Positions 6,484 to 44,918 of a DNA stretch of 50,134 bases are shown here, in pieces. Position 1 is the stretch's first letter; each line of letters starts with the position of its first letter. The notes under the pieces were generated by a model. It made no database searches and had not been told where the DNA came from. It saw only the letters and a list, made by a program, of their open reading frames with translations. Origin of the DNA: Candidatus Omnitrophota bacterium (GTDB lineage: Bacteria > Omnitrophota > Gorgyraeia > JAGLLT01); contig JAGLLT010000008.1 in the NCBI GenBank assembly GCA_023140385.1, forward strand, positions 1-50,134, in the 5' to 3' direction. The position numbers and the translations under genes are program-made.

Positions 6484-6524
6484 TGGACGACTTATTCGTT
6501 GAAAGGTAAAATAAGAACTTCAAT

Positions 6525-27249: not shown

Positions 27250-27394
27250 CCGTACCATTCGCAAAATTTTTAAATTTTGCTCAGGTACGGTGCGCGGCAC
27301 AGGGTTAGTTTAGTGTTGAGTATGTCTAATACAGAGATTAGTCTGGTACAGAGGCGTGTCCCGTACCCGAAAGCATTTGAGTGGTACGGGGAGG
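27248..27394 (+). repeat. GTAC-family palindromes between tRNA-Arg and GIY-YIG gene
   Basis: CACCGTACC-[GCAAAATTT/AAATTTTGC insert]-GGTACGGTGCGCGGCAC; TTAGTCTGGTACAG...CCCGTACCCGAAAG...GAGTGGTACGGGGAG as at 26201-26291. Confidence 0.9.
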
Positions 27395-27401
27395 ATTAAA
27401 A

Positions 27402-27662
27402 ATGTATTTTGTTTATGTACTTATAAGTAAAAAGGATAAGGCTTTTTATATTGGTTTTACGGAAAATGTTGAAAAGAGATTGAGTGAACACAATAGAGGC
27501 GAGGCGGTAAGCACCAAGTCAAGAAGGCCGCTTGTATTGATGTATTATGAGGCGCACTTATCGAAGATAGACGCATTGAGAAGAGAAAGGTATTTTAAAT
27601 CTAGTAAGGGAAGAACTACGTTAAAGCAAATGCTCTGCGAGAGTTTGAGAAGCGGTTTATAA
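27402..27662 (+). CDS. Stand-alone GIY-YIG nuclease (86 aa)
   Basis: FVYVL...FYIG, KRLSEHN, STKSRRP, RRERYFK. Confidence 0.92.
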   Translation: MYFVYVLISKKDKAFYIGFTENVEKRLSEHNRGEAVSTKSRRPLVLMYYEAHLSKIDALRRERYFKSSKGRTTLKQMLCESLRSGL

Positions 27663-27671
27663 TTGATAAAG

Positions 27672-28133
27672 ATGAATGATGAATATTATATGCGGGAGGC
27701 GCTGAAGCTTGCCGTTGAAGCTTTTAAGGCGGATGAAGTGCCGATGGGGGCGGTGATAGTACATAAAGATAGAATTATTGCCAAAGCCCACAATCAAATA
27801 AAGACCCTAAAAGACCCCACGGCTCACGCTGAGATGATTGCCATTACTCAGGCGGCCAGTTATCTTAAAAACGAACGCCTCATTGATACTGTGATGTATG
27901 TAACCATTGAACCTTGCGCGATGTGTATGGGCGCCTTGATACTGGCCAGAGTTAACAGGCTTGTTTACGGAGCGGATGACAGTAAAGCCGGCGCCTGCGG
28001 TTCGGTGATGGATTTATCAGATAATAAAAAATTAAATCACAGCATAGAGGTTAAAAACGGCATTCTTGAAGATAGCTGCCGTGATATTATACAAGAGTTT
28101 TTTAAATTAAAAAGAAAGAAGATCCTTCGCTGA
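27672..28133 (+). CDS. tadA: tRNA adenosine(34) deaminase
   Basis: DEVPMGA, DPTAHAEM, TIEPCAMC; adjacent to its substrate tRNA-Arg(ACG). Confidence 0.95.
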   Translation: MNDEYYMREALKLAVEAFKADEVPMGAVIVHKDRIIAKAHNQIKTLKDPTAHAEMIAITQAASYLKNERLIDTVMYVTIEPCAMCMGALILARVNRLVYGADDSKAGACGSVMDLSDNKKLNHSIEVKNGILEDSCRDIIQEFFKLKRKKILR

Positions 28134-28160
28134 AGAAGCGGTGAAAAGCAATTATAACAT

Positions 28161-28196
28161 GGAGAGGTGCGAGAGCGGCTTAATCGGCGCGCTTGG
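28161..28196 (+). pseudogene. tRNA-Ser(GGA) 5' half, copy 1 (divergent allele)
   Basis: 36 nt matching 28625-28660 with 3 substitutions; ends at ...GCTTGG within the anticodon. Confidence 0.85.
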
Positions 28197-28263
28197 CCAC
28201 CGCCTATGGCGGGGTCCCGCTCTCTTCATTGAAGATACTTCTTTCGGAGAAGCGGTGAAAAGC
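28197..28263 (+). repeat. Structured 67 bp insert following tRNA 5' half (copy 1; copy 2 at 28547-28613)
   Basis: CCACCGCCTATGGCGGG.TCCCGCTCTCTTCATTGAAGATACTTCTTTCGGAGAAGCGGTGAAAAGC present twice, one mismatch. Confidence 0.9.
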
Positions 28264-28275
28264 GAAACAAGAACT

Positions 28276-28524
28276 ATGTTTTACGTTTATATCTTGAAAA
28301 ATAGTGAAAGCAAATATTATACTGGAATGACATCTAAGCCCCCTGAAGCCAGATTAAAAGAACATAATTCTAATGCAAATAAGTGGACAAAAAATAAAGG
28401 TCCTTGGGGTCTTATTTATGCAAAAGCTTTTGAAACAAAAAAAGAAGCTTGGTTAAGAGAGCGTCAGATTAAAAAATATAAAGGCGGAAGTGCCTTTAAA
28501 GAATTAATCCGGAGAGGTGCGTGA
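28276..28524 (+). CDS. Stand-alone GIY-YIG nuclease (82 aa)
   Basis: YVYIL...YYTG, ARLKEHN, GPW, LRERQIK; stop codon lies inside the tRNA 5' half copy 2. Confidence 0.9.
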   Translation: MFYVYILKNSESKYYTGMTSKPPEARLKEHNSNANKWTKNKGPWGLIYAKAFETKKEAWLRERQIKKYKGGSAFKELIRRGA

Positions 28525-28546
28525 GCGGCTTAAACGGCACGCTTGG
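28511..28546 (+). pseudogene. tRNA-Ser(GGA) 5' half, copy 2
   Basis: 36 nt identical to 28625-28660. Confidence 0.85.
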
Positions 28547-28624: not shown

Positions 28625-28712
28625 GGAGAGGTGCGTGAGCGGCTTAAACGGCACGCTTGGAAAGCGTGTGTACTTAACGGTACCCTGGGTTCGAATCCCA
28701 GCCTCTCCGCCA
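28625..28712 (+). tRNA. tRNA-Ser(GGA)
   Basis: GGAGAGG/CCTCTCC, CACGC-TTGGAAA-GCGTG, variable arm GTAC/GTAC, GTTCGAATC, CCA. Confidence 0.95.
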
Positions 28713-28715
28713 GCC

Positions 28716-29012
28716 TAATCCCATAAGCAGTTAATTCCCTTGACGTTATATATAAAAGTAGTAAAATCAAGGTGTTAACTGCTTTTTGTATTTTTATATA
28801 AATCTTGCATATTTTTATGTTTTTTGAGACTTGTGACACGAAAATGACACGTTATAGCAAATAATAGTTTAACCTAAGGGAGGTTATTAATGGATGGTTA
28901 TGATGCTGCGTTTGTAGCCCCCTGCACATAGACTTCCCTTATTAACAAGTTGACTACCGAAGTTAACGTAGTCACTAAAAATATTTCCAACATAATGTCT
29001 ATGGTAGAAAAA
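28716..29012 (+). repeat. About 300 bp island left-end sequence duplicated at 35390-35686
   Basis: Constant 6674 bp offset; first ~100 bp essentially identical, then diverged. Confidence 0.9.
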
Positions 29013-29207
29013 AGCTGGTCTCAACAAAAACTCGCTCAGGAAGCAGGATTATCCTTTAATGCAATAACAAAAATTGAACAGGGACTAGCAAAATATCCAA
29101 CACTAAAAACTCTTAGCAAATTGTCTAATGTTTTTCAAATTGGCATAGATGAATTAGTTGGAAGAGGAAAAACAAATTTTATTAGGATTAAAAATGGAAA
29201 ATTATGA
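28890..29207 (+). pseudogene. Chimeric pseudogene: N-terminus of a 35564-like gene fused in frame to an XRE HTH
   Basis: MDGYDAAFVAPCT* (TGG to TAG relative to 35564) continuing in frame to VEKS, then WSQQKLAQEAGLSFNAITKIEQG HTH. Confidence 0.75.
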
Positions 29208-32200
29208 TAATACTCACAAAATCTTAACAAAAACTGGACCTATTAGAAAAGGCTTCGATTATCAAGATGCTTGTGCTGCCTTCTTGTTTGTAAAATGGCT
29301 TAGGTACCCAGCAGAAAAAAAATGGGTTAAATTGGAAGCAAAAGAGTGTGGCTTTTTGGATGACATTGTTTTTGTAAGTAAGGATAATACACTATTTCTA
29401 AAACAAATTAAGTATTCATGTCATCCAGAAACCCCGCAAGATGAATGGAGCTTGGAGTCAATATTAAAAGAACCACAAGGGAAAAAAACCAAAAGACAGT
29501 CTTTATTTAAAAGATGGTTTCTGTCTTGGCAGGAATTTCGAGAAAAAAAGTCATTTCGCGAAGTAAAGGCAGAATTACTAACCAATCGAAAAGCCTCTGA
29601 AAACATAATTAATGTTGCTGAAATGTGTGATAACTCTACGGCAATAATTATTGATATCAAAAAGCTAAAAAAATTGTCTCCCGAGCATTATCAAGAGATG
29701 CTTAGGCAAATAAAGCCCTACAAAAAGAAGCATTTAAGGACTTTTTTTAATAATTTTAAATTTAATTTTGACCACTATTCTTTAGAAAGAATGTGGACTC
29801 AAACAGAAGTGATTTTTAAAGAACTGGGTGGGAGTGGTGGTGCATGGTTAGCTTTTAAGGAAAAAATTAGAGAGTGGGCTATAGAACAAGATAAGCCATC
29901 TAAAGAAGGCTTAATAAAAATAGAGGACTTAAGAAGTGCGGCAGGGTGGGAAAAATTAAAAGCGTTAAATCAAGAATTTTCAATGCCAGACGACTTTGAG
30001 TTGTTTGATGAAAGAATTGAGAAAAAGTTAATAAGTGATTTTAAAAAACGAAAAGGTGGCCTGCATATTTTGTATGGACTTCCTGGAGTTGGCAAGAGTA
30101 CTTTTTTGTCACACTTATATAAAAAGTTAGAAGGAGCCAATATCCCGGTATTAAAGCACCACTATTTTTTAACAACGAGCGATCCTGATTTCTATGAACG
30201 ACTTGAACATGAAAGGGCAGAAGAAGGATTAAAGAACGAAATTTACCAAAAATTTAGAGATTTATTGGGAGAACATGCTAACCAAAATCAAAAACAGGCA
30301 AAATTACAAGATTGGTTATCTGCAATCAATAAACAGTTTAATGCCAGAAAACAAGCCTTAGTAATAATCGTTGATGGGCTTGACCATGTTAAAAATTATA
30401 GTGACATAAAAAACTTGAATAAATTTTTGATGCAGATACTTCCGTGCTTAGAAGAAATGTGGATTGTTTTAGGAACACGGTTGATGTCTGAAGAAAATCT
30501 TCCCCCAATAATATATGAACATTGTTCATTTAAACAGTGGATAGAAGTTAAACCATTTTCAAAAAGTGTCGTTGCAAATCTAATACGAAAAAACATTAAA
30601 AGTAAAAAGTTAAGGATTCAAAAGGACAGATATATTATTAGAAAATTTACAAACAAATTTTATCAGCTTACAGAAGGACATCCATTGCATATTAGGTATT
30701 CACTTGAAATCTTATTTGAATTTGGTAAAACAAAAAATATTACAGATTATGATTTAGCTAATTTACCACCCTATCAGGGAAATATCGAGAAATACTACAA
30801 CATATTATGGTCTAAATTAAGACAAGAAGGTAAAAGCGTTGCGATCTTAATAGCAGGTGCTAATTTTTTCTTAAAAGGCCATCAAGTCTTTGAAGTTCTT
30901 GTTTCCAATGCAGTACGTATGGATGCGCTTTTAGAAGGTTTTGGGCAAATAAAACATTTATTGAAAGAGATTCGTCGAGGGGTCACTTTTTTCCACACGA
31001 GTTTTTCGGAATACATTAGACAAACGCAAGAGTTTCAAATTTCGAACCCTACAATAAAAAAAGAGCTAAGGAATTGGCTTACAAGCAAAGCTCCGGAAGA
31101 GCTGTGTTGGCAACAATGGCTTAGATTAGAATATGAGTTAGGAAATTATGAGTTAGTTCTTTCGAATTTAACAAAAGATTGGGTTATAGAAGCGATAGAA
31201 AAACAATGCTCTCTAAAGCTAATTAATGAACATTTGAGTATGGGCATAGATGCCGCCCTTCAACAGGGAAATTTTTCAAAAGGAGCATTCCTGGGGTTAT
31301 TGTTGAATGTGGTTGATAATATAACAGTAGAAAATGAAGATGATTATGAAAAGTTGATAATGTTTTTATTGAAAGAAAAAGATGGAAAAGATATAGATAG
31401 GTATATATTCGAAGAAAACATTCCAAGCTATTCCTCTTCCAAATTAAATGCTTTAGCTACACTGGCAGAAGAAAAAGGAAGAATGGATATTTTGGAGGTA
31501 ATATTTGAGGAGCTTAACACTGGATATGATAGAGATGAAGAATACTCAATGCGAAATCGAGGGCAACGAGAAATAACATTAAGTAAAGTTGTGGCATATT
31601 TAAATATTGAGCCTAAAAGGGTTTTAAATTGGATAAGGAAATTTGATAACAGTGTAAAAAAGGAAGAATTGCTATCATGCTATGTGTTTGGATTGCTTAA
31701 AGCTCGCAAGTTTACAATAATTGAAAATTTGATCAGCAAAAAAATATCACAAGAAGAAAAAAATATTGTATTGAATCAGTATACGAAATATTGTTTCGAA
31801 AATAAAATTGACATTAGTGGCTTTATTTTAAAAAATGGTAAACACATTGTGGGCTTACAAGAAATGTTATTGCTTGCCGTGCTTAATAAGCTCCCTGGAG
31901 ATGTGAGTACTTTAATCCCAGAGCATCAAGTATTCCCACTTGCATTAGAAGATTACAAAAGTAAAGAAGTTTCAGCTCTTGCTATAACCTTTTTTAATTG
32001 TTACACGAGTGCTTTAATACTTAGTTGTGGAGCAAAGAAAACTGTTGTTGAGCATTGGATTAAAAGCGGGGAATTTTTTTCTTGGAGCCGTGAAGCAGCT
32101 AAGAGCCTTGTTGAATTAGGGATGGAACATGGAGAAAAAATAAAAAATGGAATAAATATTAAATATAGCGATCTAATTGACAAATTGAAAGATTTACATG

Positions 32201-35200
32201 TTCTAGATTGGAGAGAAGATAGAGATATCTACGGAATATATAAATCATTTAGAACAGCGGCAGAAAAAGTTTTTAACTTATTAAAAAATATTAAGCGATG
32301 GCAAAACGATAATTTCAAAATTGCTGAAAATGAATTTATTCAATATTGCGATTCAGATTTTTTTGGCAAATATGTAATGTTGAAAAACTTAGCTTATGAA
32401 CGAGAACCGTTTTTAGAGGAAAAAGCATACGTGAAATTTATCACCGAAGAAGAGAAAAGCCTTAAAAATGATGTTATATATTTTAGGGATAGAGTGGAGC
32501 AATATGTAGATTTAGCACATCTTGCGGGCTTACATAAGGACAGCGATAGAATAAAAGTTTTTACTAAAAAGGCAATTTTAAATATGCTAGCTTATGGGGC
32601 TAAAGATGCTTATCATTCTGATGTCTTAGAGTGCGTAGAAGCGTGTCATAAGGCAGGGTCGAAAAAAGGAGATTCATGGCTAAAAAGAATAGCTCCATTG
32701 ATAGAACAAGCAGAAAATTATACCGAAGGTGCTAAGTATTTACAAATAGATCTTGCAGAAAAACTTGCTTTAATAAACCCAGAAAGCTTAAAAAGCTATT
32801 ATATATATCATGCTAATAATGAAAATTTATTTTTGGCACAGGATATTTTTCCCTTTATTGTTTCTATAACTGTTAAAAATAACGAAATTGATAAAGCTGT
32901 ACTAAAAACAGCAATAGATAGAGAGTCAATTGAAAAATTACAGGACATGGCTAAAAAAAATCCTACAGTAGAAACTATTTTAAATGAGAACAGGGAATAT
33001 TTTAATAGTTTAGTAACTTTTCCTCCCAAAGAAGAGCGGGGCACGAACTGCAACCATTCGTCTTTAGCCAATGATTTAACTGATTATAAGTCGATTGCGC
33101 CAAGTAATCTCAAAAACCATTTATTAAATATAAAAGATTTATATCAGAGAAATAGGTATCTGAGCGGATGGAGTCAGTGTTGGCTTTCTGAGGAGGGAGA
33201 AGAAGAGGCGTATAAAATAACGATAGATTGGATCGAAGAAACGGGAATAGAAAAGGCCGATCACGAAGTGCTAGATTTGTTATATCCGTTAGCTTTTAAA
33301 TTTGAAAACAAAGAAAAGAGCTTCTTTTTATTATGTAATGCCCACACTAAAGGATATGGGTGGTCAGGAAGATTTTTTTCAAGAAAAGAAGCAGTTGTAA
33401 AAAGATGGGATTTTTTAAAGCAACATTTCCCTGAAAAATTTAAGGATTTTTGTAAAGAAACATTAACTAAGGTTGACCGAGAGGGAAATTCAAAATTTGT
33501 TGCATATTTGCCTGTTCCAAGAGGTGTAGAATTTATGACTTTTTTTAATGTTCTGGACATCGCAGAACAAATGACGGAAGTTGCAGTAACCTTTGCAGAA
33601 GATTTAATGGCAGATTTAAGCATTCCAAAGCTTGTGTGGCAAGAGTGGAGGGGTAAAAATTCTTTAGATGTTCTTCTTGAGCGATTTAAGTGGCCGAGTC
33701 CACTTGTGCGTGAAAGAGCAGCTACAGCATTATGTAATCTTATCTCTAATGAAGAGACATCGCAATTAGTTGTTACACAACTATTAAAATGGGGAAGTTT
33801 GCAAGGGCTTGAAAGCATAACAGTAATGACATTGCTCCCCTTTGTGAAATCAGCAAGACTTAATAAATGCAACGGATTGGTGGCCTATAAGACAATAAAA
33901 GATAACATTAATAATTCTTCGATAAATTCAGAATTTCTCTTAAGAGAAGTTGCATTAGCAATAGAAGGAGAAGTTCTAAAAGAAGAAGAGTTTGTTGAAG
34001 AAAGAGAACCGGAAAATCTAGAATCTTGTCCAAAGGATTATAAACCTAATAAATTTTTCCTTCGTACTCAAAAAGCTTTTTTGCCACCCATTCATGTGAT
34101 AAGGGCAGAAAAAATCGAAAAAAATACAGGGTTTAAATTTATACAACAGTGGGCTTGGGATGCAGATCGAATTAGAAAAAAGATTGGTATTGAAGAATCT
34201 TTAAGGGATGTAATGGATTTCATGGGAGGAAGATATCAACCTAGTATGCCAGCATTTTCTAGTAAAATGTCGGAAATTTATAGGTCAGCTTTTTTGAGAA
34301 CGCTGTTTCTTTGTTATAAGGAGAATAAAATACCAAAAGGTCTTTTATTTAAATGGACGTTCTCATTGTGTCCAATAGATATCAATTTTTGGGAAATTAA
34401 TGAACGCAATTCTCCTGGTTGGTGGCCAGGCTTAAGCCAAAAATCAAATGGGAAAATAGATATTTCTCAAGGGAAAATTCTTACAGACTTAGAAAGCTTA
34501 TTGGATAAACTAGATTTAGATGAAAATAAGATAGTTGGTCTGCATGGCCCCGCTAAACCTTTTGACGGATGGCATAGTGAAAATCTTGGCACTAAAATTC
34601 TCGTGGTACCTTTTGCTTATGAAATAAAAGGAGCGCAGTTACCAAGCGCAAAAGAAATAGGAGAAGTTATTGCTTACTCTCCTGTTATCGAAGTTCCTTC
34701 AATAACAAAAAAGCCCTTTTGTTTTTTTGAGCAAGAAAATATGCCTTTAGACGAAAGTAACGTTGGAGGGATTAAAGTTAAAGATGCTGTAATATTTCCT
34801 TTAGTTGCGCGGATACACACGCATCCAATTAACTATTGGAAAGCATGTATTGGGCGCCATGCATCTTTTGGTATTGCCGAAAACTTATTAAATGAGGGGC
34901 TTAAGCAGGGATACGAAGCAAATAATTGGTTCTATATGTTTAACGAAGAAAAAGTAATCATAAGTTATGCTTGGAATATAGGAATAATAGAACGGCATAA
35001 TAGTGATTTTGATGCTCCATCTGGACAAATAATAGAAATAAAGAGAACATGGTTAAAAAAAATTTTAGATGAACAAAAGCTAAGGGTAGGATATTTTATT
35101 AAAATGAAATTTATTCATAGACAATATTTACATGAAAAAGCTAGTATTTATGAGGAAGATAAATTACTTAATTTTTCTCCTATAATTGTTCAAAGGGGTA

Positions 35201-35208
35201 AGTGGTGA
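29194..35208 (+). CDS. AVAST-like STAND NTPase with N-terminal Cap4/PD-(D/E)XK nuclease (Avs3a-like, ~2004 aa)
   Basis: GFDYQD...LDDI...QIK nuclease motifs; GLPGVGKS, HHYFL, IVDGLDHV, GHPL; long helical C-terminal region. Confidence 0.8.
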   Translation: MENYDNTHKILTKTGPIRKGFDYQDACAAFLFVKWLRYPAEKKWVKLEAKECGFLDDIVFVSKDNTLFLKQIKYSCHPETPQDEWSLESILKEPQGKKTKRQSLFKRWFLSWQEFREKKSFREVKAELLTNRKASENIINVAEMCDNSTAIIIDIKKLKKLSPEHYQEMLRQIKPYKKKHLRTFFNNFKFNFDHYSLERMWTQTEVIFKELGGSGGAWLAFKEKIREWAIEQDKPSKEGLIKIEDLRSAAGWEKLKALNQEFSMPDDFELFDERIEKKLISDFKKRKGGLHILYGLPGVGKSTFLSHLYKKLEGANIPVLKHHYFLTTSDPDFYERLEHERAEEGLKNEIYQKFRDLLGEHANQNQKQAKLQDWLSAINKQFNARKQALVIIVDGLDHVKNYSDIKNLNKFLMQILPCLEEMWIVLGTRLMSEENLPPIIYEHCSFKQWIEVKPFSKSVVANLIRKNIKSKKLRIQKDRYIIRKFTNKFYQLTEGHPLHIRYSLEILFEFGKTKNITDYDLANLPPYQGNIEKYYNILWSKLRQEGKSVAILIAGANFFLKGHQVFEVLVSNAVRMDALLEGFGQIKHLLKEIRRGVTFFHTSFSEYIRQTQEFQISNPTIKKELRNWLTSKAPEELCWQQWLRLEYELGNYELVLSNLTKDWVIEAIEKQCSLKLINEHLSMGIDAALQQGNFSKGAFLGLLLNVVDNITVENEDDYEKLIMFLLKEKDGKDIDRYIFEENIPSYSSSKLNALATLAEEKGRMDILEVIFEELNTGYDRDEEYSMRNRGQREITLSKVVAYLNIEPKRVLNWIRKFDNSVKKEELLSCYVFGLLKARKFTIIENLISKKISQEEKNIVLNQYTKYCFENKIDISGFILKNGKHIVGLQEMLLLAVLNKLPGDVSTLIPEHQVFPLALEDYKSKEVSALAITFFNCYTSALILSCGAKKTVVEHWIKSGEFFSWSREAAKSLVELGMEHGEKIKNGINIKYSDLIDKLKDLHVLDWREDRDIYGIYKSFRTAAEKVFNLLKNIKRWQNDNFKIAENEFIQYCDSDFFGKYVMLKNLAYEREPFLEEKAYVKFITEEEKSLKNDVIYFRDRVEQYVDLAHLAGLHKDSDRIKVFTKKAILNMLAYGAKDAYHSDVLECVEACHKAGSKKGDSWLKRIAPLIEQAENYTEGAKYLQIDLAEKLALINPESLKSYYIYHANNENLFLAQDIFPFIVSITVKNNEIDKAVLKTAIDRESIEKLQDMAKKNPTVETILNENREYFNSLVTFPPKEERGTNCNHSSLANDLTDYKSIAPSNLKNHLLNIKDLYQRNRYLSGWSQCWLSEEGEEEAYKITIDWIEETGIEKADHEVLDLLYPLAFKFENKEKSFFLLCNAHTKGYGWSGRFFSRKEAVVKRWDFLKQHFPEKFKDFCKETLTKVDREGNSKFVAYLPVPRGVEFMTFFNVLDIAEQMTEVAVTFAEDLMADLSIPKLVWQEWRGKNSLDVLLERFKWPSPLVRERAATALCNLISNEETSQLVVTQLLKWGSLQGLESITVMTLLPFVKSARLNKCNGLVAYKTIKDNINNSSINSEFLLREVALAIEGEVLKEEEFVEEREPENLESCPKDYKPNKFFLRTQKAFLPPIHVIRAEKIEKNTGFKFIQQWAWDADRIRKKIGIEESLRDVMDFMGGRYQPSMPAFSSKMSEIYRSAFLRTLFLCYKENKIPKGLLFKWTFSLCPIDINFWEINERNSPGWWPGLSQKSNGKIDISQGKILTDLESLLDKLDLDENKIVGLHGPAKPFDGWHSENLGTKILVVPFAYEIKGAQLPSAKEIGEVIAYSPVIEVPSITKKPFCFFEQENMPLDESNVGGIKVKDAVIFPLVARIHTHPINYWKACIGRHASFGIAENLLNEGLKQGYEANNWFYMFNEEKVIISYAWNIGIIERHNSDFDAPSGQIIEIKRTWLKKILDEQKLRVGYFIKMKFIHRQYLHEKASIYEEDKLLNFSPIIVQRGKW

Positions 35209-35563
35209 ATAATGCAGAAGGCGGGTGATCTCGGGGAGACGCCTGTCGAGTGCATGTGCGACGCTAAGAGTCCACCAAGAGGACAACGAAGAAGTAACCC
35301 ATGTCAGACCTAATCTTGATTTATTGAGTGTGCTTCCCTGAGGTCGCTCCAAAATGAGTTCGAATTTTATCGAATAAGCACTGCCAGTGTAATCCCATAA
35401 GCAGTTAATTCCCTTGACGTTATATATAAAAGTAGTAAAATCAAGGTGTTAACTGCTTTTTGTATTTTTATATAAATCTTGCATATTTTTATCTTTTTTA
35501 AAATTTATGTCACGAAATTGACACGCCATAACAAAAGATAATTTAATTTAAAGGAGGTCATTT

Positions 35564-36850
35564 ATGGATGGCCATGATAATGCGTTTATAGCCCCCGACA
35601 CATGGATCCTCCCTATTGCTAAGTTGACAGATGAAGTTAACGTATTCACTAAAAATATTTCCAATGTGACGTCTATGGTAGAAAAAAGTTTGGATTTTAG
35701 ATGTAATAGTGCACCAGCTCGCGCGATATTTGATTTGAAGGATACTCTTTCTATAGCAAGTAACAATATTTCATCTATTATATCATGTGCTCATAATTTT
35801 GCAGAAATTGCAGAAACGCCGTCATCACTTTTGTTGGACAGTCAGAAAATAGCTTCTCTTTCGTCTGATTTAGTTGTTGACGCAACAAGCTCAATTTTAG
35901 CCACTACGGCATCAATGCTTAGCAGTGTTCGCAGTAATATTGAGAGTCTTCATATTACTGATTATAATGGAGTAGACGTCTTTAGCATGGAAAAACTGTC
36001 CGCATTATCTATTCCAGACCAACCAGTTGCTATAAATTCATTATCTCAAGATAGTCTTATTTCGTTGGGCAATAGTCTGCAGAATAATACCTTTACAGTT
36101 AAAAGTTTAATAAACACCTCCTTGGCGACATCACGGCTTAACGTAGAGATTTTTACCAACCCCGTGGAAAGTGTAGATACTTATCTTGCTGATATGAACG
36201 AAACAACTATACATTTTAACTCACTATCAGCTTCTGTATATAATGAAATGACTTGTTCTCCTTTGATTGATACAAATAGTTTACTCTTCCAGGCGCCTAC
36301 AATTGAACCATATGCTGCGATATCTGCTGTTGCTGTTCTTGGGGGCTTGGATGAAGATGCTTTAGATCGATTTTGTGTCAAAAGTACAGATAACTTCCTT
36401 GATGCATTAGGAGATGGACTTGAGACGCGTTTGCAAGCAGTGAATCCACAATTAGCCAGCGTATATCGAGAGGGTATGGTGGCGGTAAAATCAGGCCATG
36501 AAGGATGGATTCGTCACGCAGGGGTGTCTTTCAGAACTTTACTTGATCATCTTCTGCGTTATTTGGCGCCTGATAAAAAACTTAATTCATACTTTGAAAA
36601 TCCAAAAGATAATATGATAGACGGAGAATTTAGCCGCAATTCGAAACTTCGATATATATTTCGTGAAATCGCTTGTGGGTCATATTCGAAAATGGCAGAA
36701 CAAGATATAAAACTTGCCGAGGCAACATTTTTCCCATCAAACGAAATAGTGCATAAGCTATCATCACCACTTTCAGAACAACAAATGCGCGTATTTTGCC
36801 GTCGTGTTCAAGGATGCGTATCCGTTATTTTGGAAGTAGCGGGGCATTAA
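35564..36850 (+). CDS. Protein with C-terminal predicted pPIWI-associating nuclease (pP_pnuc_1-like, HEPN-related) domain
   Basis: RHAGVSFRTLLDHLLRYLAPD...SRNSKLRYI...NEIVH pattern after a Ser/Leu-rich N-terminal region; AAGGAGG RBS. Confidence 0.6.
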   Translation: MDGHDNAFIAPDTWILPIAKLTDEVNVFTKNISNVTSMVEKSLDFRCNSAPARAIFDLKDTLSIASNNISSIISCAHNFAEIAETPSSLLLDSQKIASLSSDLVVDATSSILATTASMLSSVRSNIESLHITDYNGVDVFSMEKLSALSIPDQPVAINSLSQDSLISLGNSLQNNTFTVKSLINTSLATSRLNVEIFTNPVESVDTYLADMNETTIHFNSLSASVYNEMTCSPLIDTNSLLFQAPTIEPYAAISAVAVLGGLDEDALDRFCVKSTDNFLDALGDGLETRLQAVNPQLASVYREGMVAVKSGHEGWIRHAGVSFRTLLDHLLRYLAPDKKLNSYFENPKDNMIDGEFSRNSKLRYIFREIACGSYSKMAEQDIKLAEATFFPSNEIVHKLSSPLSEQQMRVFCRRVQGCVSVILEVAGH

Positions 36851-36878: not shown

Positions 36879-37808
36879 ATGATATTGCTATATGTTGCTA
36901 TTTCTATACCCTTTATAATTGCCCTCTTCTCTCTTCTTAAAGACTGGAACGATGAGAAGCGGAGAATTTATATATCATTACTCATATTAACAATATGTGC
37001 CTTTATGGTAAGTTGTCTATGCACCTATTTCTCTGGGAGGGAAAGTGAAGAATTAAAAAAAGAAAATTATTTGAAAGATCGAAGGCAAATAACCCTAACT
37101 CTCCTCTGTAGCAACAGACTCCCTCTAAAACGCCCACTATCAAAAATAGAAAAAAATCTAAGAGCTAATAATTACGATTCAGCAATAGCTTTTGCCGAAG
37201 CAATTTTATTATATGCGAACACATTAGCGGACGGTGAAAGGCAGCAGGTAGTTCGTGATATATATATTTATTTTATCTATAATGCAGAAGATCGCAGGGA
37301 AAAAATTAAGCTTCTTGAATTAATAAATATAGAATATCCTGAAGAATTTGCCGAAGTGCATCGTTTGCTAGGGCAGCTTTATGCTGAAGAGGGACGCTTT
37401 AAGGATGCGATGCTAATTTTGAATAAAGCATTATATATAGAAGATGACAATAGTATAACGTATCATTTACTTGGTCGCGTATCTTTTGCCGAAGGAGATT
37501 GGGAGAAAGCGCTAAAATATTACAAAAGAGGAATAGAAAAAAATGAGAAATATGTAAATTTAAATATTGAAATAGGAGATATTATTTGGTGTTACACAAA
37601 TGACGTGGAAAAAGCAAAAGGGTACTACGAGAAGGCCATTGAGAATAAAGACATAAAAGATTGGTATTATTCTGCATATGAAGAGGATTTAATTAAGAGA
37701 CAATCTGTGGTCAGTAACAAGGATCTTCAATACAATATAAAACCAGCAGATAAAATCACTTTCTTTTTAAAAGAAACACCCTTTGTTGTAGAAGAAAGTA
37801 AAAAGTAA
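36879..37808 (+). CDS. Membrane-anchored TPR protein
   Basis: Two N-terminal TM segments; repeats LLGQLY..EG...DA, LLGRVS..EG..EKALKYY. Confidence 0.75.
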   Translation: MILLYVAISIPFIIALFSLLKDWNDEKRRIYISLLILTICAFMVSCLCTYFSGRESEELKKENYLKDRRQITLTLLCSNRLPLKRPLSKIEKNLRANNYDSAIAFAEAILLYANTLADGERQQVVRDIYIYFIYNAEDRREKIKLLELINIEYPEEFAEVHRLLGQLYAEEGRFKDAMLILNKALYIEDDNSITYHLLGRVSFAEGDWEKALKYYKRGIEKNEKYVNLNIEIGDIIWCYTNDVEKAKGYYEKAIENKDIKDWYYSAYEEDLIKRQSVVSNKDLQYNIKPADKITFFLKETPFVVEESKK

Positions 37809-38524: not shown

Positions 38525-39580
38525 ATGGGCGTAGTTTACAAAAGAAAAGATAGCCCTTGCTGGTGGCTGGCTTATTCAGCGGGAGGGCAAAGGATAAGAG
38601 AAAGCTCCGGTACTGCTTCGAAATTACTTGCCAGAGAAATCCTGATCCGAAAGGAATCCGAAGTTTTACTTTCCGGGGGCAGCAGAGTTTTCTTAAAAAA
38701 ATCTGTAGAGGTCTTTGTTTCTGATTATTTAGAATGGATAAAGGTTAACCGTCGTGAACATACTCTTCGGAGTTACACGACTATTCTAAAAACCTTCGTT
38801 AATTTTCTCAAGGACTATCCTAATATCAAAAACCTATCAGATATTACGTCCAAACTGCTTGAAAATTATAAACAGTATAGATTAGCTCAAGCTAAAACCT
38901 GTACACTAAAAAATCATGTAATTGTTTTAAAGGCCTTTTTTTGTAAAGCAGTAGAGTGGGATTGTTTATCTGAAAATCCGGCTAAAAATTTAAAATCGGT
39001 CGAAATAATTGATTCGAAACCAATTAAAGTATTAACGGAAGAAGAGTACACTGGATTTATGACTACCTGCAAAAGTGAATTTAAAGAATTTTATCCTATG
39101 TTTTATACTTTTATACACACCGGATTAAGAAAATCAGAGCTTCTTAGTCTTGAGTGGAAGGATGTAGATTTTGAAAGAGGTTTAATATATATACGCAATA
39201 AAGAAAATTTTCGGCCTAAAGGAATAAATAAAAAAACAGGTAAAGCCAAAGAAAGAATAATTCCCATACACGATAATCTCAAGCGGGTATTAACAAACTT
39301 ACCGAAAAACAACCCGGTTCTATTTGGGCCATATTCAAAACATATGCCAAGACGAGTTCTTATAAGAATAGCAAAAAGAGCAAACATCACCGGCCTTACC
39401 AGATTGCATGAGCTTAGACATTCATACGCCACATTTCTATTGAAAAAAGGCGTGGATATATATAAAATAAAAGAGTTATTGGGTCATTCTGATATAAGGG
39501 ATACTATGAAGTATGCACATTTACCCACAGTTCATATGAAAGAGGATGTGAAGGTATTGGAAAATTTAGATAATGCTTGA
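38525..39580 (+). CDS. Tyrosine recombinase/phage-type integrase
   Basis: TGLRKSE, HELRHSYAT, LLGH, TMKYAH; N-terminal arm-binding-like region. Confidence 0.95.
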   Translation: MGVVYKRKDSPCWWLAYSAGGQRIRESSGTASKLLAREILIRKESEVLLSGGSRVFLKKSVEVFVSDYLEWIKVNRREHTLRSYTTILKTFVNFLKDYPNIKNLSDITSKLLENYKQYRLAQAKTCTLKNHVIVLKAFFCKAVEWDCLSENPAKNLKSVEIIDSKPIKVLTEEEYTGFMTTCKSEFKEFYPMFYTFIHTGLRKSELLSLEWKDVDFERGLIYIRNKENFRPKGINKKTGKAKERIIPIHDNLKRVLTNLPKNNPVLFGPYSKHMPRRVLIRIAKRANITGLTRLHELRHSYATFLLKKGVDIYKIKELLGHSDIRDTMKYAHLPTVHMKEDVKVLENLDNA

Positions 39581-39653: not shown

Positions 39654-40499
39654 ATGATAAAAGGTAACAAGAATAAGCCATACTTCAAAAGTGATAACTT
39701 CGAACTCTATTTAGATGACTGTAGGGATTCTTTGAATAATTTGCCTGAAGAATCAGTGGATATGATATTTGCGGACCCCCCGTATAATTTATCCAATGGC
39801 GGTTTTACCTGCCATGCCGGCAAAAGAGTTCCTGTTAATAAAGGCAGTTGGGACGAAAGCAAGGGTTTAGATAAAGATTTAAAGTTTCACATAGCTTGGA
39901 TAAACGCATGTAGGCGCGTTTTAAAGCCTAATGGTACAATTTGGATTAGCGGAACTTATCACTCAATTTATCGCTGTGGATATGCGTTGGAAGTATCAGG
40001 ATATCATATATTAAATGATATAAGTTGGCTTAAGCCTAACGCGGCCCCCAATTTAAGCTGCCGCTTTTTTACCGCAAGTCATGAAACAATAATTTGGGCC
40101 AGAAAAAATAAAAAAGCTAAGCATGTGTTTAATTATAATCTTATGCGCAACGGTGAATGGCCGGGAGATATTATAAAGAAACCCAATAAGCAAATGCGTT
40201 CTGTATGGAGCATTAACACACCTAAACCATTTGAGAAAACATTTGGCAAGCATCCGACTCAAAAGCCGGAAGATTTGCTTAAAAGAATTGTTTTGTCGAG
40301 TACAAACAAAGAACAACTTGTGCTAGATCCCTTTACGGGTAGCTCTACAACAGGACTTGTTGCACATTTATATGGTAGAAAATTTATTGGTATAGATAAT
40401 GAAAGATCTTACCTTGATTTATCGATAAAAAGATTTAATTTACTTAATGCCAACGTAAAGAAAAAACGTGATAGAAAACCAAAGGCGGTACTTGTATGA
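39654..40499 (+). CDS. N6-adenine/N4-cytosine DNA methyltransferase, beta class (DpnIIB-like)
   Basis: DMIFADPPY, HPTQKP, LDPFTGSSTT. Confidence 0.92.
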   Translation: MIKGNKNKPYFKSDNFELYLDDCRDSLNNLPEESVDMIFADPPYNLSNGGFTCHAGKRVPVNKGSWDESKGLDKDLKFHIAWINACRRVLKPNGTIWISGTYHSIYRCGYALEVSGYHILNDISWLKPNAAPNLSCRFFTASHETIIWARKNKKAKHVFNYNLMRNGEWPGDIIKKPNKQMRSVWSINTPKPFEKTFGKHPTQKPEDLLKRIVLSSTNKEQLVLDPFTGSSTTGLVAHLYGRKFIGIDNERSYLDLSIKRFNLLNANVKKKRDRKPKAVLV

Positions 40500-41017
40500 T
40501 AAAGGGCGGCAAAGGTGGAGGCAAAACAATAACGGGCTTAAGATTTGAGTCTAGAATATCTCTTGAAAAAGCAATTTCTTCTCTTTCCCATTATAAAGTT
40601 TCAGATGACACTATTTATTATAAAGATAAGAAGGTTGCAGAATTATACCAAAAACACAAATTATATAAAAACTTATTAGAGCCAAATGATATTGATTTTA
40701 AAGCTATCATTTCTAAAAAATTACTTCCTGATGAAGCGATCTTAATAATAAAAGATAAAACACTCTTTATTATAGAAATCAAATTTCAAGAAGTGGCCGG
40801 TTCTGTTGATGAGAAGCTGCAGACTTGTGATTTTAAGAATAAGCAATACAAAAAATTGCTAACCCCTTTAAACATATCTGTTAAATATGTTTATGTTCTT
40901 AATGACTGGTTCAAAAAGAAAGAGTATAAAGATGTATTAGATTATGTGAAATCGGTTGACTGCTACTATTTCTTTAATGAACTTCCTTTAGATTTCCTAG
41001 ACTTACCCATGCCTTAA
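40496..41017 (+). CDS. PD-(D/E)XK nuclease, probable type II restriction endonuclease
   Basis: LPDE...IEIK, GSVDEK; ATGA overlap with the MTase. Confidence 0.75.
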   Translation: MIKGGKGGGKTITGLRFESRISLEKAISSLSHYKVSDDTIYYKDKKVAELYQKHKLYKNLLEPNDIDFKAIISKKLLPDEAILIIKDKTLFIIEIKFQEVAGSVDEKLQTCDFKNKQYKKLLTPLNISVKYVYVLNDWFKKKEYKDVLDYVKSVDCYYFFNELPLDFLDLPMP

Positions 41018-41035: not shown

Positions 41036-42898
41036 ATGCACCACGATAAAATAAAGAGTGCAGAGCAAAAGTTAAACAACATAAGCAATATATTCCAAAG
41101 TAATACGTTACTGCAAAAACCCACTAATCAAATTGAGGAGAAAGCTATCGTGAGAGGTAGTATAAAAAATTGTGAAGACCTTCATTTTTCAGAGTTTTGT
41201 TCAGAAAGAAGAATGTTTATTGTGCCCACATTTCAACGTGCTTACAAATGGACCACTAAAAATATAAGCGATTTATGGGAAAGTATTACATCTTATCCAA
41301 GTAAGTATTTTATTGGTAATATTGTCTGCTTGGAAGGGGCAAGTAATATAGATGGAAGAATGTTAATTATTGATGGACAACAAAGATTGATAACTGTCTC
41401 TTTAATTTTAACGGCTATAAGAGATGAGTATAAAGAAATCGCCAAAACTGTCAAAGGGGAAGACAAAGAAAGCATTGAAGAAAGTTTAGATACAATAAAA
41501 AATATCCTGACACATAAGGAACTCAAAAGGACGGCAAAAAGAGAGCCAAGAATTTTACCTGGAAGAAAGAATGCTTGTGATGTGTATATTAAAATTCTAG
41601 ATAGTAAAATAAATGTTAATAATAAGGCAGAACTAAAAAACTTAGATGGAAGCCAAATAAAATATGTTAAAAACTACAAAACAATAAAAAAGCTTCTTGC
41701 AGAATATATAAAAGATAATAAGCTTGATAAGCTAGAAGATATATTGGGCAGAGTTTTAGATTTGGTAATAATAACTATCATATGTGAAACTGATAGCGAT
41801 GCCTATAATATATTCGAAGGGTTAAATGCGACTGGAATAGGTCTATCTGTTGCTGATTTAGTAAAAAATGCTGTAATGTATTCAGCTGGCAGTACTGATG
41901 CGAGAAAAAGCGTAGAACAAAATTGGGAACTGATGGAAAGTGTCTTTGAAAAAACAACGGTCTCGCTAATTCCCAAGTTTTTAAGGCATCAATGGATATC
42001 GCACGAAGGGTATATTCAGGGTAGTAAGCTCTTTGACAGCATTAAAAGTAAAAAACTAAAAGGCAAGAGCAACGCAAAGATAGTTAATTATGTGAAGTCG
42101 ATATTAAACGATGCCAAGCTATATTCTGATTTACGTTCTGACAACGATGATGAATTAAAGCGATATTTCAATCAAAAAAGTATAGAAATTTTGAAGTGGT
42201 TCCAAGTTCTTAATATAGATCAAGTTTATGAGCTTATTTTGGCGTTTTGTAACAAGTTTATTTCATCTAAGGGCATATATACCGAGGGGCAATTATGTGC
42301 GGATTTAGATAGGCTGTGGTCTTTTTCTTTTAGAGCAAAGCTTCTTTCGTTAAATCCTTCTGATTATGAGAAAGTTTTTGCAGAACAATGTAAGTTAACC
42401 GAAAGATATAATAAAAAAGAAATGAACAGAATGACAGCAAAGTTTTATTCGACGCTTAAGAAAAAAGTTTCAAATGACAATGATTTTATAGACAAATTTG
42501 CTAGTGAAATATGGTATAAAGATGGTTCAAAAAACAGTTTGATTTATCATATTTTCAATACTATGTTCAAAAAGAAAAATCCAGGCATACAGCTTGTAAG
42601 TCCAACGATAGAGCATATATTACCTAAAAAACCTCAAAAATGGGGTTATGAACAAAGCGAAATAAAAGAGTTTGTTGATAACATAGGTAATTTAAGTTTA
42701 CTTTATGATAGTGACAATAAGAAAACTGGTAACGAAAAAATGGATGATAAGGTTAAAAAAGTGTATTCTGTATCGCCATTCGCTATTAATAATGAGATAG
42801 CGAGATATAAAAAAGATTTTGAAGAAGATCCTGAAAAAGCGATAGAAAAAAGAGCGAAAGCATTGGCAAGAGAAGCAGCAGAGCTTTGGAAATTATAG
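41036..42898 (+). CDS. GmrSD/SspE-like DUF262 + DUF1524 (HNH) protein
   Basis: VPTFQRAYKW, DGQQR, FEGLNATG, EHILP, IGNLSLL...N. Confidence 0.9.
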   Translation: MHHDKIKSAEQKLNNISNIFQSNTLLQKPTNQIEEKAIVRGSIKNCEDLHFSEFCSERRMFIVPTFQRAYKWTTKNISDLWESITSYPSKYFIGNIVCLEGASNIDGRMLIIDGQQRLITVSLILTAIRDEYKEIAKTVKGEDKESIEESLDTIKNILTHKELKRTAKREPRILPGRKNACDVYIKILDSKINVNNKAELKNLDGSQIKYVKNYKTIKKLLAEYIKDNKLDKLEDILGRVLDLVIITIICETDSDAYNIFEGLNATGIGLSVADLVKNAVMYSAGSTDARKSVEQNWELMESVFEKTTVSLIPKFLRHQWISHEGYIQGSKLFDSIKSKKLKGKSNAKIVNYVKSILNDAKLYSDLRSDNDDELKRYFNQKSIEILKWFQVLNIDQVYELILAFCNKFISSKGIYTEGQLCADLDRLWSFSFRAKLLSLNPSDYEKVFAEQCKLTERYNKKEMNRMTAKFYSTLKKKVSNDNDFIDKFASEIWYKDGSKNSLIYHIFNTMFKKKNPGIQLVSPTIEHILPKKPQKWGYEQSEIKEFVDNIGNLSLLYDSDNKKTGNEKMDDKVKKVYSVSPFAINNEIARYKKDFEEDPEKAIEKRAKALAREAAELWKL

Positions 42899-43065: not shown

Positions 43066-43260
43066 CCAGCGACACCAAAAGATGCTCTTGATTGGGAAAC
43101 AATGAATAAATTATGTGCTCAAAATAAAGATTTCAAAAAATTCATACAAGATGTAAAAATTGATTTGGAATCAAAGAGAATGCATAAGTCAGAATATGAC
43201 AAAATAATTGATGACCCAGAAGAATATATAAAAAAGAAATTTCACGGGATTAATGTTTGA
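43066..43260 (+). pseudogene. C-terminal fragment of a COG2958/HrgA-like nuclease
   Basis: Manual translation PATPKDALDWETMNKLCAQNKDFKKFIQDVKID..., resembling the C-terminus of that family; no upstream portion. Confidence 0.5.
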
Positions 43261-43379
43261 TAGATAAACGCGAATTAGCAAACATGATTATAGACTAATG
43301 AAGAAAATATAGAAAATTGTGAGACGATTCTGATATAGTTGTTATTTTGATAGTGTACTAATATAAGAAGGAGGATGGA

Positions 43380-43814
43380 ATGAACAGAAAAGATTGGGCT
43401 CTATTCGCTATAAGCTATGCAGGAGAAGGCCACCTTTCCCCCGCCCAACTTCAAAAAAGTTTGTTTTTGCTTGGAGAAAATAAAAAATCAGCTGTTCGTA
43501 AAGATTTCTACAAATTTGCACCGTATAACTATGGGCCATTTTGCAAAGATATTTATTCTGATACGGGAAGCTTAGAAGCAGATGGTTTGATTAAATTTAG
43601 CCGCCCTATAGGGAGAAGTTGGGTTGGATATTCTCTAACGGGGGAAGGCAAAAAGCGGATAAAAGAGCTAAAAGATGCAGCAATAGCTGATGATTTAAAA
43701 TACCTCTCCGAAATTATAAGGTGGGTTAAAAGCATTTCATTTAAACAACTTCTAACAGCAATTTATAAAGAATACCCTAAATATAAAATTAACAGTCTTT
43801 TTTCAGGAGTATAA
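43380..43814 (+). CDS. Panacea/SocA (DUF4065/YwgA)-like winged-helix protein
   Basis: QLQKSLFL, YKFAPYNYGPF..DIY, YSLT.EG, IYKEYP. Confidence 0.75.
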   Translation: MNRKDWALFAISYAGEGHLSPAQLQKSLFLLGENKKSAVRKDFYKFAPYNYGPFCKDIYSDTGSLEADGLIKFSRPIGRSWVGYSLTGEGKKRIKELKDAAIADDLKYLSEIIRWVKSISFKQLLTAIYKEYPKYKINSLFSGV

Positions 43815-44600
43815 ATGACTTTAATAGTTGGTGTTAAATGTAATAATGGGATAGTAATTGGAGCCGATAGCGCCTCAACTAATACTACAAGCACGGGTCA
43901 GCAAACTGCAATGCAACCCACCAAGAAGTTAGATATCATTGACGATAATATAATTGTTGGTATTTCTGGATCTGTTGGGTTAGCGCAATTCTTTAAAGAG
44001 GAAGTCGAAAAGCTTTGGAAGAATAATGCTTTTTCAAATAAGGGAGTAGAAGAAGCAAGAATTAAAATTACTGGTGCATTCAGAACACATCTGATAAGAG
44101 AGGCAAAATTCGCGCAAGATTCGAGTAACATGTTAGGTCGATTGCATGAGCAGGAAATTATTTCTCATACTCTTATAGCAATGCCAGTTAAAAAGAATCT
44201 TGTACTTTTAGAATTTCCTGCTACGGGTTCATCTGAAGAAAAGAAAGAAGCGATGCCAACTGTAGCAATTGGATGTGCACAACCAATTGCAGACCCATTT
44301 TTATATTTTCTTAGGAGAGTTTTCTGGCCTGATAGGTTGCCTAGTTTAGTTGAAGGGAAAATAGCGGCTTATTGGGCATTAGATTATAGCATAAAAGCCT
44401 CACCAGCCAATGTTGGATTTCCCGTCAAAATAGCTATATTAGAAAAAAAGGGTAGCGATATAAAAGCTTATGAGTTACCCAAAGAAGAGCTCACATACCT
44501 AGGTAATATTGTTGACGAAGCAGAGAAATATTTAAAAAGATATGAAGCTCCTTCGGCAGAGGAGGACAGAATTGAAATCCCAAAACCTGAGAAAAAATAA
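43815..44600 (+). CDS. Proteasome beta-subunit-like Ntn hydrolase
   Basis: (M)TLIVGVKCNNGIVIGADS gives Thr1 and Asp17; KL at the K33-equivalent region, ISGS, AIGCA, VGFPV. Confidence 0.8.
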   Translation: MTLIVGVKCNNGIVIGADSASTNTTSTGQQTAMQPTKKLDIIDDNIIVGISGSVGLAQFFKEEVEKLWKNNAFSNKGVEEARIKITGAFRTHLIREAKFAQDSSNMLGRLHEQEIISHTLIAMPVKKNLVLLEFPATGSSEEKKEAMPTVAIGCAQPIADPFLYFLRRVFWPDRLPSLVEGKIAAYWALDYSIKASPANVGFPVKIAILEKKGSDIKAYELPKEELTYLGNIVDEAEKYLKRYEAPSAEEDRIEIPKPEKK

Positions 44601-44891: not shown

Positions 44892-44918
44892 TGGGTTCGA
44901 ATCCCAGCCTCTCCGCCA
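44892..44918 (+). repeat. attR (duplicated tRNA-Ser(GGA) 3' end)
   Basis: 27 bp identical to 28686-28712. Confidence 0.92.

Follow-up and report, generated by a model that had tools for sequence, protein, structure and literature searches.

We describe here a pair of tandem genes in a 50,134-nucleotide (nt) stretch of DNA from a Candidatus Omnitrophota bacterium (contig JAGLLT010000008.1, positions 1 to 50,134; hereafter the window), in which a small protein predicted to be of the Panacea/DUF4065 type (gene 1) is encoded directly upstream of a predicted threonine protease of the proteasome family (gene 2). The two genes form an almost obligate pair that is inherited together, is mobile, and has no conserved third partner. 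The reading that we favour, to which we give about an even chance, is that the pair is a type II toxin-antitoxin or abortive-infection module whose toxin is the threonine protease. The architecture of the pair is that of a type II toxin-antitoxin system: it is bicistronic, encodes small proteins, has the antitoxin-like gene first, and is mobile and patchily distributed.

The interval had been singled out in a first-pass annotation, made from the letters of the window alone, as a Panacea/SocA-like protein coupled to a proteasome-beta-like protease at the attR end of a defence island. It is filled by two plus-strand open reading frames (ORFs), genes 1 and 2 (Table 1). The TAA stop codon of gene 1 (43812-43814) abuts the ATG of gene 2 (43815), and the sequence AGGAG at 43805-43809 provides gene 2 with a ribosome-binding site of its own, so that the two-gene unit is just as it had been described. 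On the sequence, the abutting codons are the signature of a presumptive translational coupling. After the pair, no terminator-like site was found, and the RNA fold 3' of gene 2 is no better than that of shuffled sequences (z 0.05).

Identity of the gene 2 product

Gene 2 matches the Pfam family PF00227 (Proteasome) with 40.3 bits against a cut-off of 22.4 (E 3.4e-10). When a profile of 34 relatives was searched against the PDB, archaeal proteasome beta subunits were found at E 7e-9, and in this alignment Thr2 of gene 2 falls on mature residue 1 of the beta subunits. The AlphaFold model of gene 2 (mean predicted local distance difference test score, pLDDT, 89.2) retrieves proteasome subunits and Anbu in a Foldseek search at E of about 1e-12 and TM 0.63-0.70. 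In particular, VIA-align superposes the model on PrcB of M. tuberculosis (5lzp_C) with Z 22.9 and a root-mean-square deviation (rmsd) of 3.1 over 206 residues, and places residue 2 on PrcB Thr301, the first residue of the mature chain. The model also contains a C-terminal helix (223-241) like H5 of beta subunits and Anbu. Taken together, the profile and model evidence identifies gene 2 as a predicted complete proteasome-beta-fold enzyme; the identity proposed in the first-pass annotation is supported by the Pfam score, and the N-terminal nucleophile fold is present in the model at the Z score given above.

The protein begins with MTLIVG and has no propeptide. Its catalytic set comprises Thr2 (Thr1 after removal of the methionine), Asp18 (mature 17), Lys38 (mature 37) and Gly52, which correspond to Thr1, Asp17, Lys33 and Gly47 of the proteasome; the lysine that had been placed near position 33 is thus Lys38. 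Thr2, Asp18 and Lys38 are invariant in 34 sequences of the gene 2 family, at least 90% of which retain Gly52, and the Thr-Asp-Lys triad is found in all 73 metagenome copies that span the region. Removal of the initiator methionine is established for Met-Thr N-termini; since there is no propeptide either, the nucleophile of gene 2 would be exposed.

Gene 2 was assigned neither to HslV nor to Anbu. The NCBIfam models for archaeal beta subunits and HslV match it only far under their cut-offs. An assignment to HslV was rejected, with 15.3 bits for TIGR03692 against a cut-off of 157.75 and no HslU above the cut-off in the genome: across the assembly, which has 1.50 Mb and is 92.7% complete, HslU is matched with at most 25.6 bits against a cut-off of 362.45. 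The assembly contains no PF00227 match other than gene 2, and because of these two results no dedicated unfoldase is in sight. In the Anbu operon, genes for a transglutaminase-like and an ATP-grasp protein adjoin the protease gene. No Anbu-type domains were found in ORFs 24160-50132 of the window or in 150 neighbours of 40 related loci, and the assignment to Anbu was likewise rejected. The fold comparison with Anbu (5nyw) gives Z 21.4, no more than 1.5 Z short of the top beta-subunit matches; fold likeness therefore does not single out Anbu. More generally, genes for HslU, a proteasome alpha subunit, Pup, transglutaminase and ATP-grasp proteins are all absent among ORFs 24160-50132 of the window, in agreement with the first-pass annotation.

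A second proteasome-like ORF starting with Met-Thr (256 aa) occurs in the same genome, at 1501-2271 of locus L059 (contig C18, about 5860-6630). It matches the gene 2 profile weakly (E 0.003), has no Pfam match, and sits 300 nt downstream of a SIR2-like protein (396 aa, PF13289). A search of 300 other genomes of the phylum turned up one relative (58% identity), which is flanked by an integrase-like ORF and an unannotated ORF of 236 aa; the SIR2 pairing is thus not conserved and was dropped.

Identity of the gene 1 product

Evidence for the nature of gene 1 comes from its relatives and from its predicted structure. The SocA_Panacea family (PF13274) is matched by 11 of 29 members of the gene 1 family, with a best E of 3.6e-5, and one relative (P0081) has a precomputed match to PF13274. 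The Panacea signature, according to PMC8832971, is a GPV motif on a beta strand next to a conserved central helix. In the gene 1 family, G52-P53-F54 is invariant and lies on strand 52-54, with Phe for the Val of GPV, and the highly conserved helix 21-34 (PAQLQKSLFLL) is beside this strand.

The model of gene 1 (pLDDT 93.5) has as its top fold match chain D of 7YK3 (7yk3_D), from a DarTG complex, with VIA Z 11.4 and rmsd 4.6 over 137 residues; Foldseek gives E 1.2e-4 for the same chain. This is the sole match over the full length of gene 1. Winged-helix regulators (MarR, PadR) match its core with Z 8-9 over 75-90 residues, about 2 Z below 7yk3_D. A sequence search of gene 1 against the PDB gave nothing significant (best E 0.46). 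DUF4065 proteins are described, with reference to 7YK3, as homologous to the C-terminal domain of DarG, which binds and inhibits DarT (PMC13621843, 2026), and more distant gene-1-like proteins have weak PADLOC DarG matches over that domain. On this sequence and model evidence, gene 1 is a predicted divergent Panacea/DUF4065-type domain, and the label of Panacea/SocA-like given to it at first sight agrees with the family matches, the GPF motif and the fold of 7YK3 chain D.

Gene 1 also matches the PADLOC model PDC-M19A, at model positions 6-125 of 294 (E 3.4e-16). Because the match spares the DUF488 half, gene 1 is related to PDC-M19A and is not a member of it. The sole match of gene 2 in PADLOC, to a Type I specificity model, is not significant (E 0.033). 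As a PADLOC system the pair was rejected, since the matches of gene 1 reach no further than the N-terminal half of PDC-M19A and one Type I specificity tail; with no full PDC-M19A and no significant gene 2 match, the pair is placed outside the defence systems known to PADLOC.

Two side observations concern gene-1-like domains elsewhere. In all 13 long Chloroflexota frames (loci L077, L078, L080-L083, L085-L090 and L094), PDC-M19A consists of an N-terminal domain that resembles Panacea and gene 1, joined to DUF488. The C-terminal tail of one model for Type I specificity subunits is matched by the gene-1-like domain as well.

Conservation of the pair

The pair was followed in two scans, one seeded with gene 2 and using one genome per species (57 loci), and one seeded with gene 1 in metagenomes, which confirmed at least 498 stretches, of which the best 80 were kept for locus analysis. 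A gene 1 homolog lies upstream on the same strand in 53 of the 57 gene-2-seeded loci, 52 of them within 140 nt; the exception, L017, has a 1.5-kb gap between the genes. Conversely, gene 2 is directly downstream in 77 of the best 80 metagenome loci, and the remaining three have less than 150 nt of contig left, so that no locus has room for gene 2 and lacks it. Two of two IMG/VR viral contigs carry the pair as well. The pairing is far beyond chance, and the conservation on which the first-pass annotation had made its proposal depend is found in both scans.

The arrangement within the pair is also constant. In all 42 full-length related loci, the start codon of gene 2 is -4 to +25 nt from the stop codon of gene 1, the antitoxin-like gene coming first. 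The pairwise identities of the two proteins co-vary, with a Mantel r of 0.74 that none of 999 permutations reached; co-inheritance alone would also yield a correlation. All-against-all clustering of neighbours in the 57 loci revealed no third conserved gene; the next most frequent neighbour after the pair is a transposase, in 4 loci. No fused gene 1-gene 2 proteins were seen: the longest relative has 281 aa in one search and 333 aa among the best 150 of another, and no search was aimed at longer proteins. Among 1.84 billion proteins, the gene 2 family has 1925 representatives at E<=1e-3, 1131 at 1e-10 and 596 at 1e-30, where the counts looser than 1e-30 will include ordinary proteasome subunits.

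Gene-1-like domains also occur with other partners, in the DUF488 fusion (PDC-M19A) and in the tails of Type I specificity subunits. In a sample of 401 Chloroflexota genomes, 44 had a match to the gene 1 profile, and 33 loci were examined (L062-L094; four of them from three genomes). Gene 2 is matched in 15 of these 33, in L071 as a fragment only, and the others are mostly DUF488 fusions.

The four gene 2 loci that lack gene 1 are L045, L046, L048 and L056, the last of which consists of gene 2 fragments only. The other three, all from Planctomycetes, have Asn2, Ala18 and Asn or Thr38, that is, the whole catalytic triad is gone, and appear from these residues to be an inactive offshoot of the family. 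All gene 1-bearing loci whose gene 2 match spans these positions keep Thr-Asp-Lys, and every full-length gene 2 observed with an unbroken triad was accompanied by gene 1, at least in part. As judged from the residues, then, even this exception ties gene 1 to the presumably active enzyme. Decayed copies of either gene occur, in which errors of metagenome-assembled genomes are possible: gene 2 is interrupted or truncated beside an intact gene 1 in L024, L038 and L054, and in L025 and L043 gene 1 looks shortened although the gene 2 match covers the gene wholly or for the most part, gene 2 of L025 being cut by the contig end.

Distribution and neighbours

The hosts of gene 2 include Chloroflexota, Acidobacteriota, Pseudomonadota, Planctomycetota, Bacteroidota, KSB1, a Woesebacteria genome, an Omnitrophota-type genome and others, and the gene is absent from 40 of 40 relatives of the source genome. 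In a survey of two ORFs on each side of the pair in 40 loci (150 ORFs), the pair is adjoined by transposases (L003, L004, L011 and L015), restriction-modification or helicase-nuclease genes (L006, L007 and L038), a component of PD-Lambda-2 (L013), plasmid RepB (L017 and L018), and phage terminase, capsid or portal genes (L023, L029 and L031). A UvrA near the pair in L005 matches a mads model. In an 82-kb viral contig (L060), the pair is found among regulators, a toxin-like gene and an HNH endonuclease; a further viral contig, L061, is the same element as L031. The pair has the look of a selfish, mobile, patchily distributed two-gene cassette.

Enrichment in defence islands was considered and is not claimed, as the count of loci with clear defence neighbours (4 of 40) is without a baseline. 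The defence-island setting described in the first-pass annotation is real at the locus of the window (see below) and does not extend to a general rule.

Proposed mechanism and alternative explanations

According to PMC8832971, the Panacea members studied neutralise toxins by direct binding. We propose that the two genes may make up a toxin-antitoxin-like module of the PanA/PanT kind that is complete in itself and moves horizontally. Of the roles that the first-pass annotation had offered for gene 1 (adaptor, inhibitor or substrate), we thereby favour that of an inhibitor or antitoxin. Through translational coupling, gene 1 would be made first and in a fixed ratio, and would bind gene 2 and hold the protease inactive. 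Methionine aminopeptidase alone should expose the catalytic threonine of gene 2, and for this reason gene 2 would need an external brake. If gene 1 were lost, degraded or displaced, by loss of the element or by a phage cue, the freed gene 2 could cleave cellular or phage proteins and growth would stop; as a result, the element would be stabilised or the infection aborted.

Binding between the two proteins was addressed by complex prediction, a check that the first-pass annotation had put forward. Three runs on the pair give ipSAE 0.43 (0.42-0.44), and none of three controls exceeds 0.00; the partners have pLDDT of at least 83 and the runs agree in at least 75% of contacts. Of 80 solved complexes, 58 reach the mark applied, as do 2 of 110 mismatched pairs, but scores up to 0.60 were contributed by only 7 of these 80 and by both of the passing mismatches. 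The prediction thus stands clear of its controls and passes weakly, and lends weak support to gene 1-gene 2 binding.

Several observations weigh against a toxin-antitoxin module. Gene 1 itself has no Pfam match at E <=1, and its winged-helix core is generic and fits DNA binding equally well. The weak pass of the complex score comes without a reported interface. In proteasome-type enzymes, Ser129 lies within a GSG motif; as had been spotted at the outset, gene 2 of the window has G153-C154-A155 in place of GSG at the Ser129 equivalent, GSG being present in 49 of 61 copies of the family, with a variable middle residue. Many loci lie among housekeeping genes, and clear PADLOC defence genes are within two genes of the pair in only 4 of 40 loci (L006, L007, L013 and L038). 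Genes 1 and 2 are divergent instead of tandem in L067, and the shortened gene 1 copies, if real, are unfit for an essential antitoxin. The clade without the triad probably arose in one evolutionary event, not three, and therefore counts as one observation. Finally, subunits of the proteasome type normally gain activity only on assembly and for the most part depend on an unfoldase to degrade folded substrates, as stated by Fuchs et al. (2021, PMC8665760), so that the toxicity of unassisted gene 2 is uncertain.

Gene 1 might instead be a specificity factor, adaptor or sensor that recruits substrates (e.g. phage proteins) to gene 2 or activates it, in which case the pair would serve non-suicidal defence or accessory proteolysis. 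As the first-pass annotation had pointed out, the Panacea-domain protein SocA is a proteolytic adaptor, namely for ClpXP (PMC8832971), and a sensory role of Panacea was proposed by the NetFlax authors (PMC10440598). An accessory factor would be useful to gene 2 because no unfoldase is present; moreover, obligate pairing, co-evolution and the weak support for a complex fit an obligate subunit as well as an inhibitor, and the joint loss of gene 1 and the catalytic triad fits too. However, the PanA antitoxins that were tested neutralise by direct binding, without ClpXP or Lon (PMC8832971), and the homologous domain of DarG is an inhibitor (PMC13621843). In addition, the gene order and tight coupling are as in type II toxin-antitoxin pairs, and the module contains no substrate or toxin gene for an adaptor to deliver. 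We consider this explanation unlikely, while granting it a real share of the probability. It is improbable that gene 1 is a winged-helix autoregulator of the operon and gene 2 a stand-alone, non-toxic accessory protease carried on mobile elements. The core of gene 1 does match MarR, PadR and other winged-helix DNA binders, at the Z scores given above, and some members of its family have weak PadR or helix-turn-helix matches in Pfam, but the best and sole whole-protein match is the toxin-binding domain of DarG. Moreover, the sole inverted repeat in the 300 nt 5' of gene 1 (10 nt, 43253-43285) sits about 100 nt 5' of the start codon, where it overlaps the 3' end of the small ORF before gene 1, away from the promoter-like site, and a mere regulator is not expected to show the observed co-variation (r 0.74) or retention (77/80), although co-inherited neighbours also correlate.

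The occurrence of the pair in phages raises the question of whether gene 2 serves phage morphogenesis, as a protease for head maturation or other virion processing that works with gene 1, the bacterial copies being prophage remnants. A terminase, major capsid or portal gene is beside the pair in three genome loci (L023, L029 and L031), the two IMG/VR contigs carry it (L061, however, being the same element as L031), and the Atlas clusters of both proteins include phage members. On the other hand, most loci have no phage genes nearby, the pair lies outside the head module in L060, and it also adjoins plasmid RepB and transposases. The island in the window contains an integrase and defence genes, and no structural phage genes in the part scanned. 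We hold a role in phage morphogenesis to be very improbable. A further reading, in which a proteasome-family threonine protease is the effector of a minimal immune or addiction module of bacteria and phages and a Panacea-type protein gates it as both brake and sensor, is in our view plausible but somewhat short of an even chance.

The host island in tRNA-Ser

The pair lies at the attR end of a 16-kb island integrated in tRNA-Ser(gga). This position, already assigned in the first-pass annotation, is confirmed by an exact 27-nt repeat of the 3' end of the tRNA gene. The order of the genes in the island is given in Table 1. The island contains a 300-nt internal repeat (28709-29008 versus 35383-35682, 85%) and a degenerate att-like copy at 35360-35407, which suggest, as far as the sequence can tell, that it may be composite, i.e. 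two elements integrated in tandem.

Table 1. Coordinates of the gene pair, its signals and the surrounding island in the window
Feature	Position	Strand	Size	Description	Basis
Gene 1	43380..43814	+	144 aa	Putative antitoxin/inhibitor, predicted divergent Panacea/DUF4065-type (DarG C-terminal-domain-like)	ORF
Gene 2	43815..44600	+	261 aa	Putative toxin/effector, predicted proteasome-beta/HslV-like N-terminal-threonine protease	ORF
Shine-Dalgarno-like AAGGAGGA	43368..43375	+		4 nt 5' of gene 1 ATG	Read from sequence
AGGAG within the end of gene 1	43805..43809	+		5 nt 5' of gene 2 ATG	Read from sequence
attL	28686..28712	+	27 nt	3' end (last 27 nt) of tRNA-Ser(gga)	
attR	44892..44918	+	27 nt	Exact 27-nt repeat of tRNA-Ser 3' end; 291 nt past gene 2 stop	
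Avs-like NACHT ATPase with Cap4-type nuclease	29158-35208		2016 aa	Island, first in order	
pPIWI-associated-nuclease-domain protein	35564-36850			Island	
TPR protein	36879-37808			Island	
Tyrosine integrase	38525-39580			Island	
Type II methyltransferase and PD-(D/E)XK protein	39654-41017			Island	
GmrSD/HEC-06 enzyme	41036-42898			Island; followed by the pair	

Some further features of the window were noted. A 52-aa ORF without a family match (43102-43260) lies between the GmrSD gene and the pair. An exact copy of the first 36 nt of tRNA-Ser(gga) is present 114 nt upstream of them (28511-28546 and 28625-28660), and the duplicate looks like a partial tRNA copy beside the integration site. At 27381-28524, in a cluster of tRNA genes (Ser, Arg, Ser), two GIY-YIG ORFs surround a deaminase ORF that matches PF14437 (MafB19-like) and PF00383 (dCMP/cytidine deaminase). 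A 1990-aa ORF at 18083-24055 is located in a stretch of higher G+C content (0.48, versus about 0.34 around it).

Comparison with known systems

A search of the papers available did not find DUF4065 and proteasome together, and returned nothing relevant for proteasome homologs in toxin-antitoxin or defence contexts. The terms proteasome, peptidase, Ntn and HslV are absent from the main texts of the two PanA/PanT papers (PMC8832971 and PMC10440598), whose supplementary partner-cluster lists could contain the pairing, and the main text of the preprint on PADLOC candidate systems (10.1101/2024.01.29.577857) does not mention Panacea, DUF4065, proteasome or M19. This pairing, which we did not find described, suggests a toxin-antitoxin architecture of the Panacea type whose partner belongs to a new class.

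With HslV, Anbu, BPH and the 22 families catalogued by Fuchs, Alva and Lupas (2021, PMC8665760), gene 2 shares the fold and the residues Thr1, Asp17, Lys33 and Gly47. For the 22 new proteasome homologs of that catalogue, the authors report no genomic context or co-occurrence suggestive of function, whereas gene 2 is nearly always found with its partner. Apart from HslV, bacteria have numerous proteasome homologs, of which almost none has a known role. Here, an orphan enzyme family becomes a testable two-gene system whose partner comes from a toxin-neutralising domain family. If the proposal is true, it would give an orphan bacterial proteasome-like family its first functional context and would be the first case of a proteasome homolog at the centre of a toxin-antitoxin or abortive-infection system, and N-terminal-threonine proteolysis would be a new effector chemistry in toxin-antitoxin and anti-phage biology.

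Three other systems resemble the pair in part. PDC-M19 shares the N-terminal half of PDC-M19A with gene 1, which has no DUF488, and leaves gene 2 unmatched. In DarTG (7YK3), the C-terminal domain of DarG is the best fold match of gene 1 and binds and inhibits DarT (PMC13621843); gene 1, however, has no macrodomain and is only 14% identical, and the toxin of DarTG is a DNA ADP-ribosyltransferase, whereas here it would be a protease. SocAB of Caulobacter, a type VI toxin-antitoxin system, also ties a Panacea-domain protein functionally to a protease, but relies on the housekeeping ClpXP as protease and has SocB as toxin, while here the protease is encoded in the module itself.

Finally, PanA/PanT (Kurata et al. 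2022, PMC8832971; Ernits et al. 2023, PMC10440598) has the same organization, a mobile two-gene unit in which a small Panacea-type gene is directly upstream of a variable partner, and the same signature strand motif, which here is GPF. Gene 1 differs in being too divergent for a direct Pfam match, and the partner differs in being a predicted proteasome-family threonine protease. Panacea is known to pair with dozens of unrelated toxins; the module proposed here would, if true, extend the partner range of Panacea to this family.

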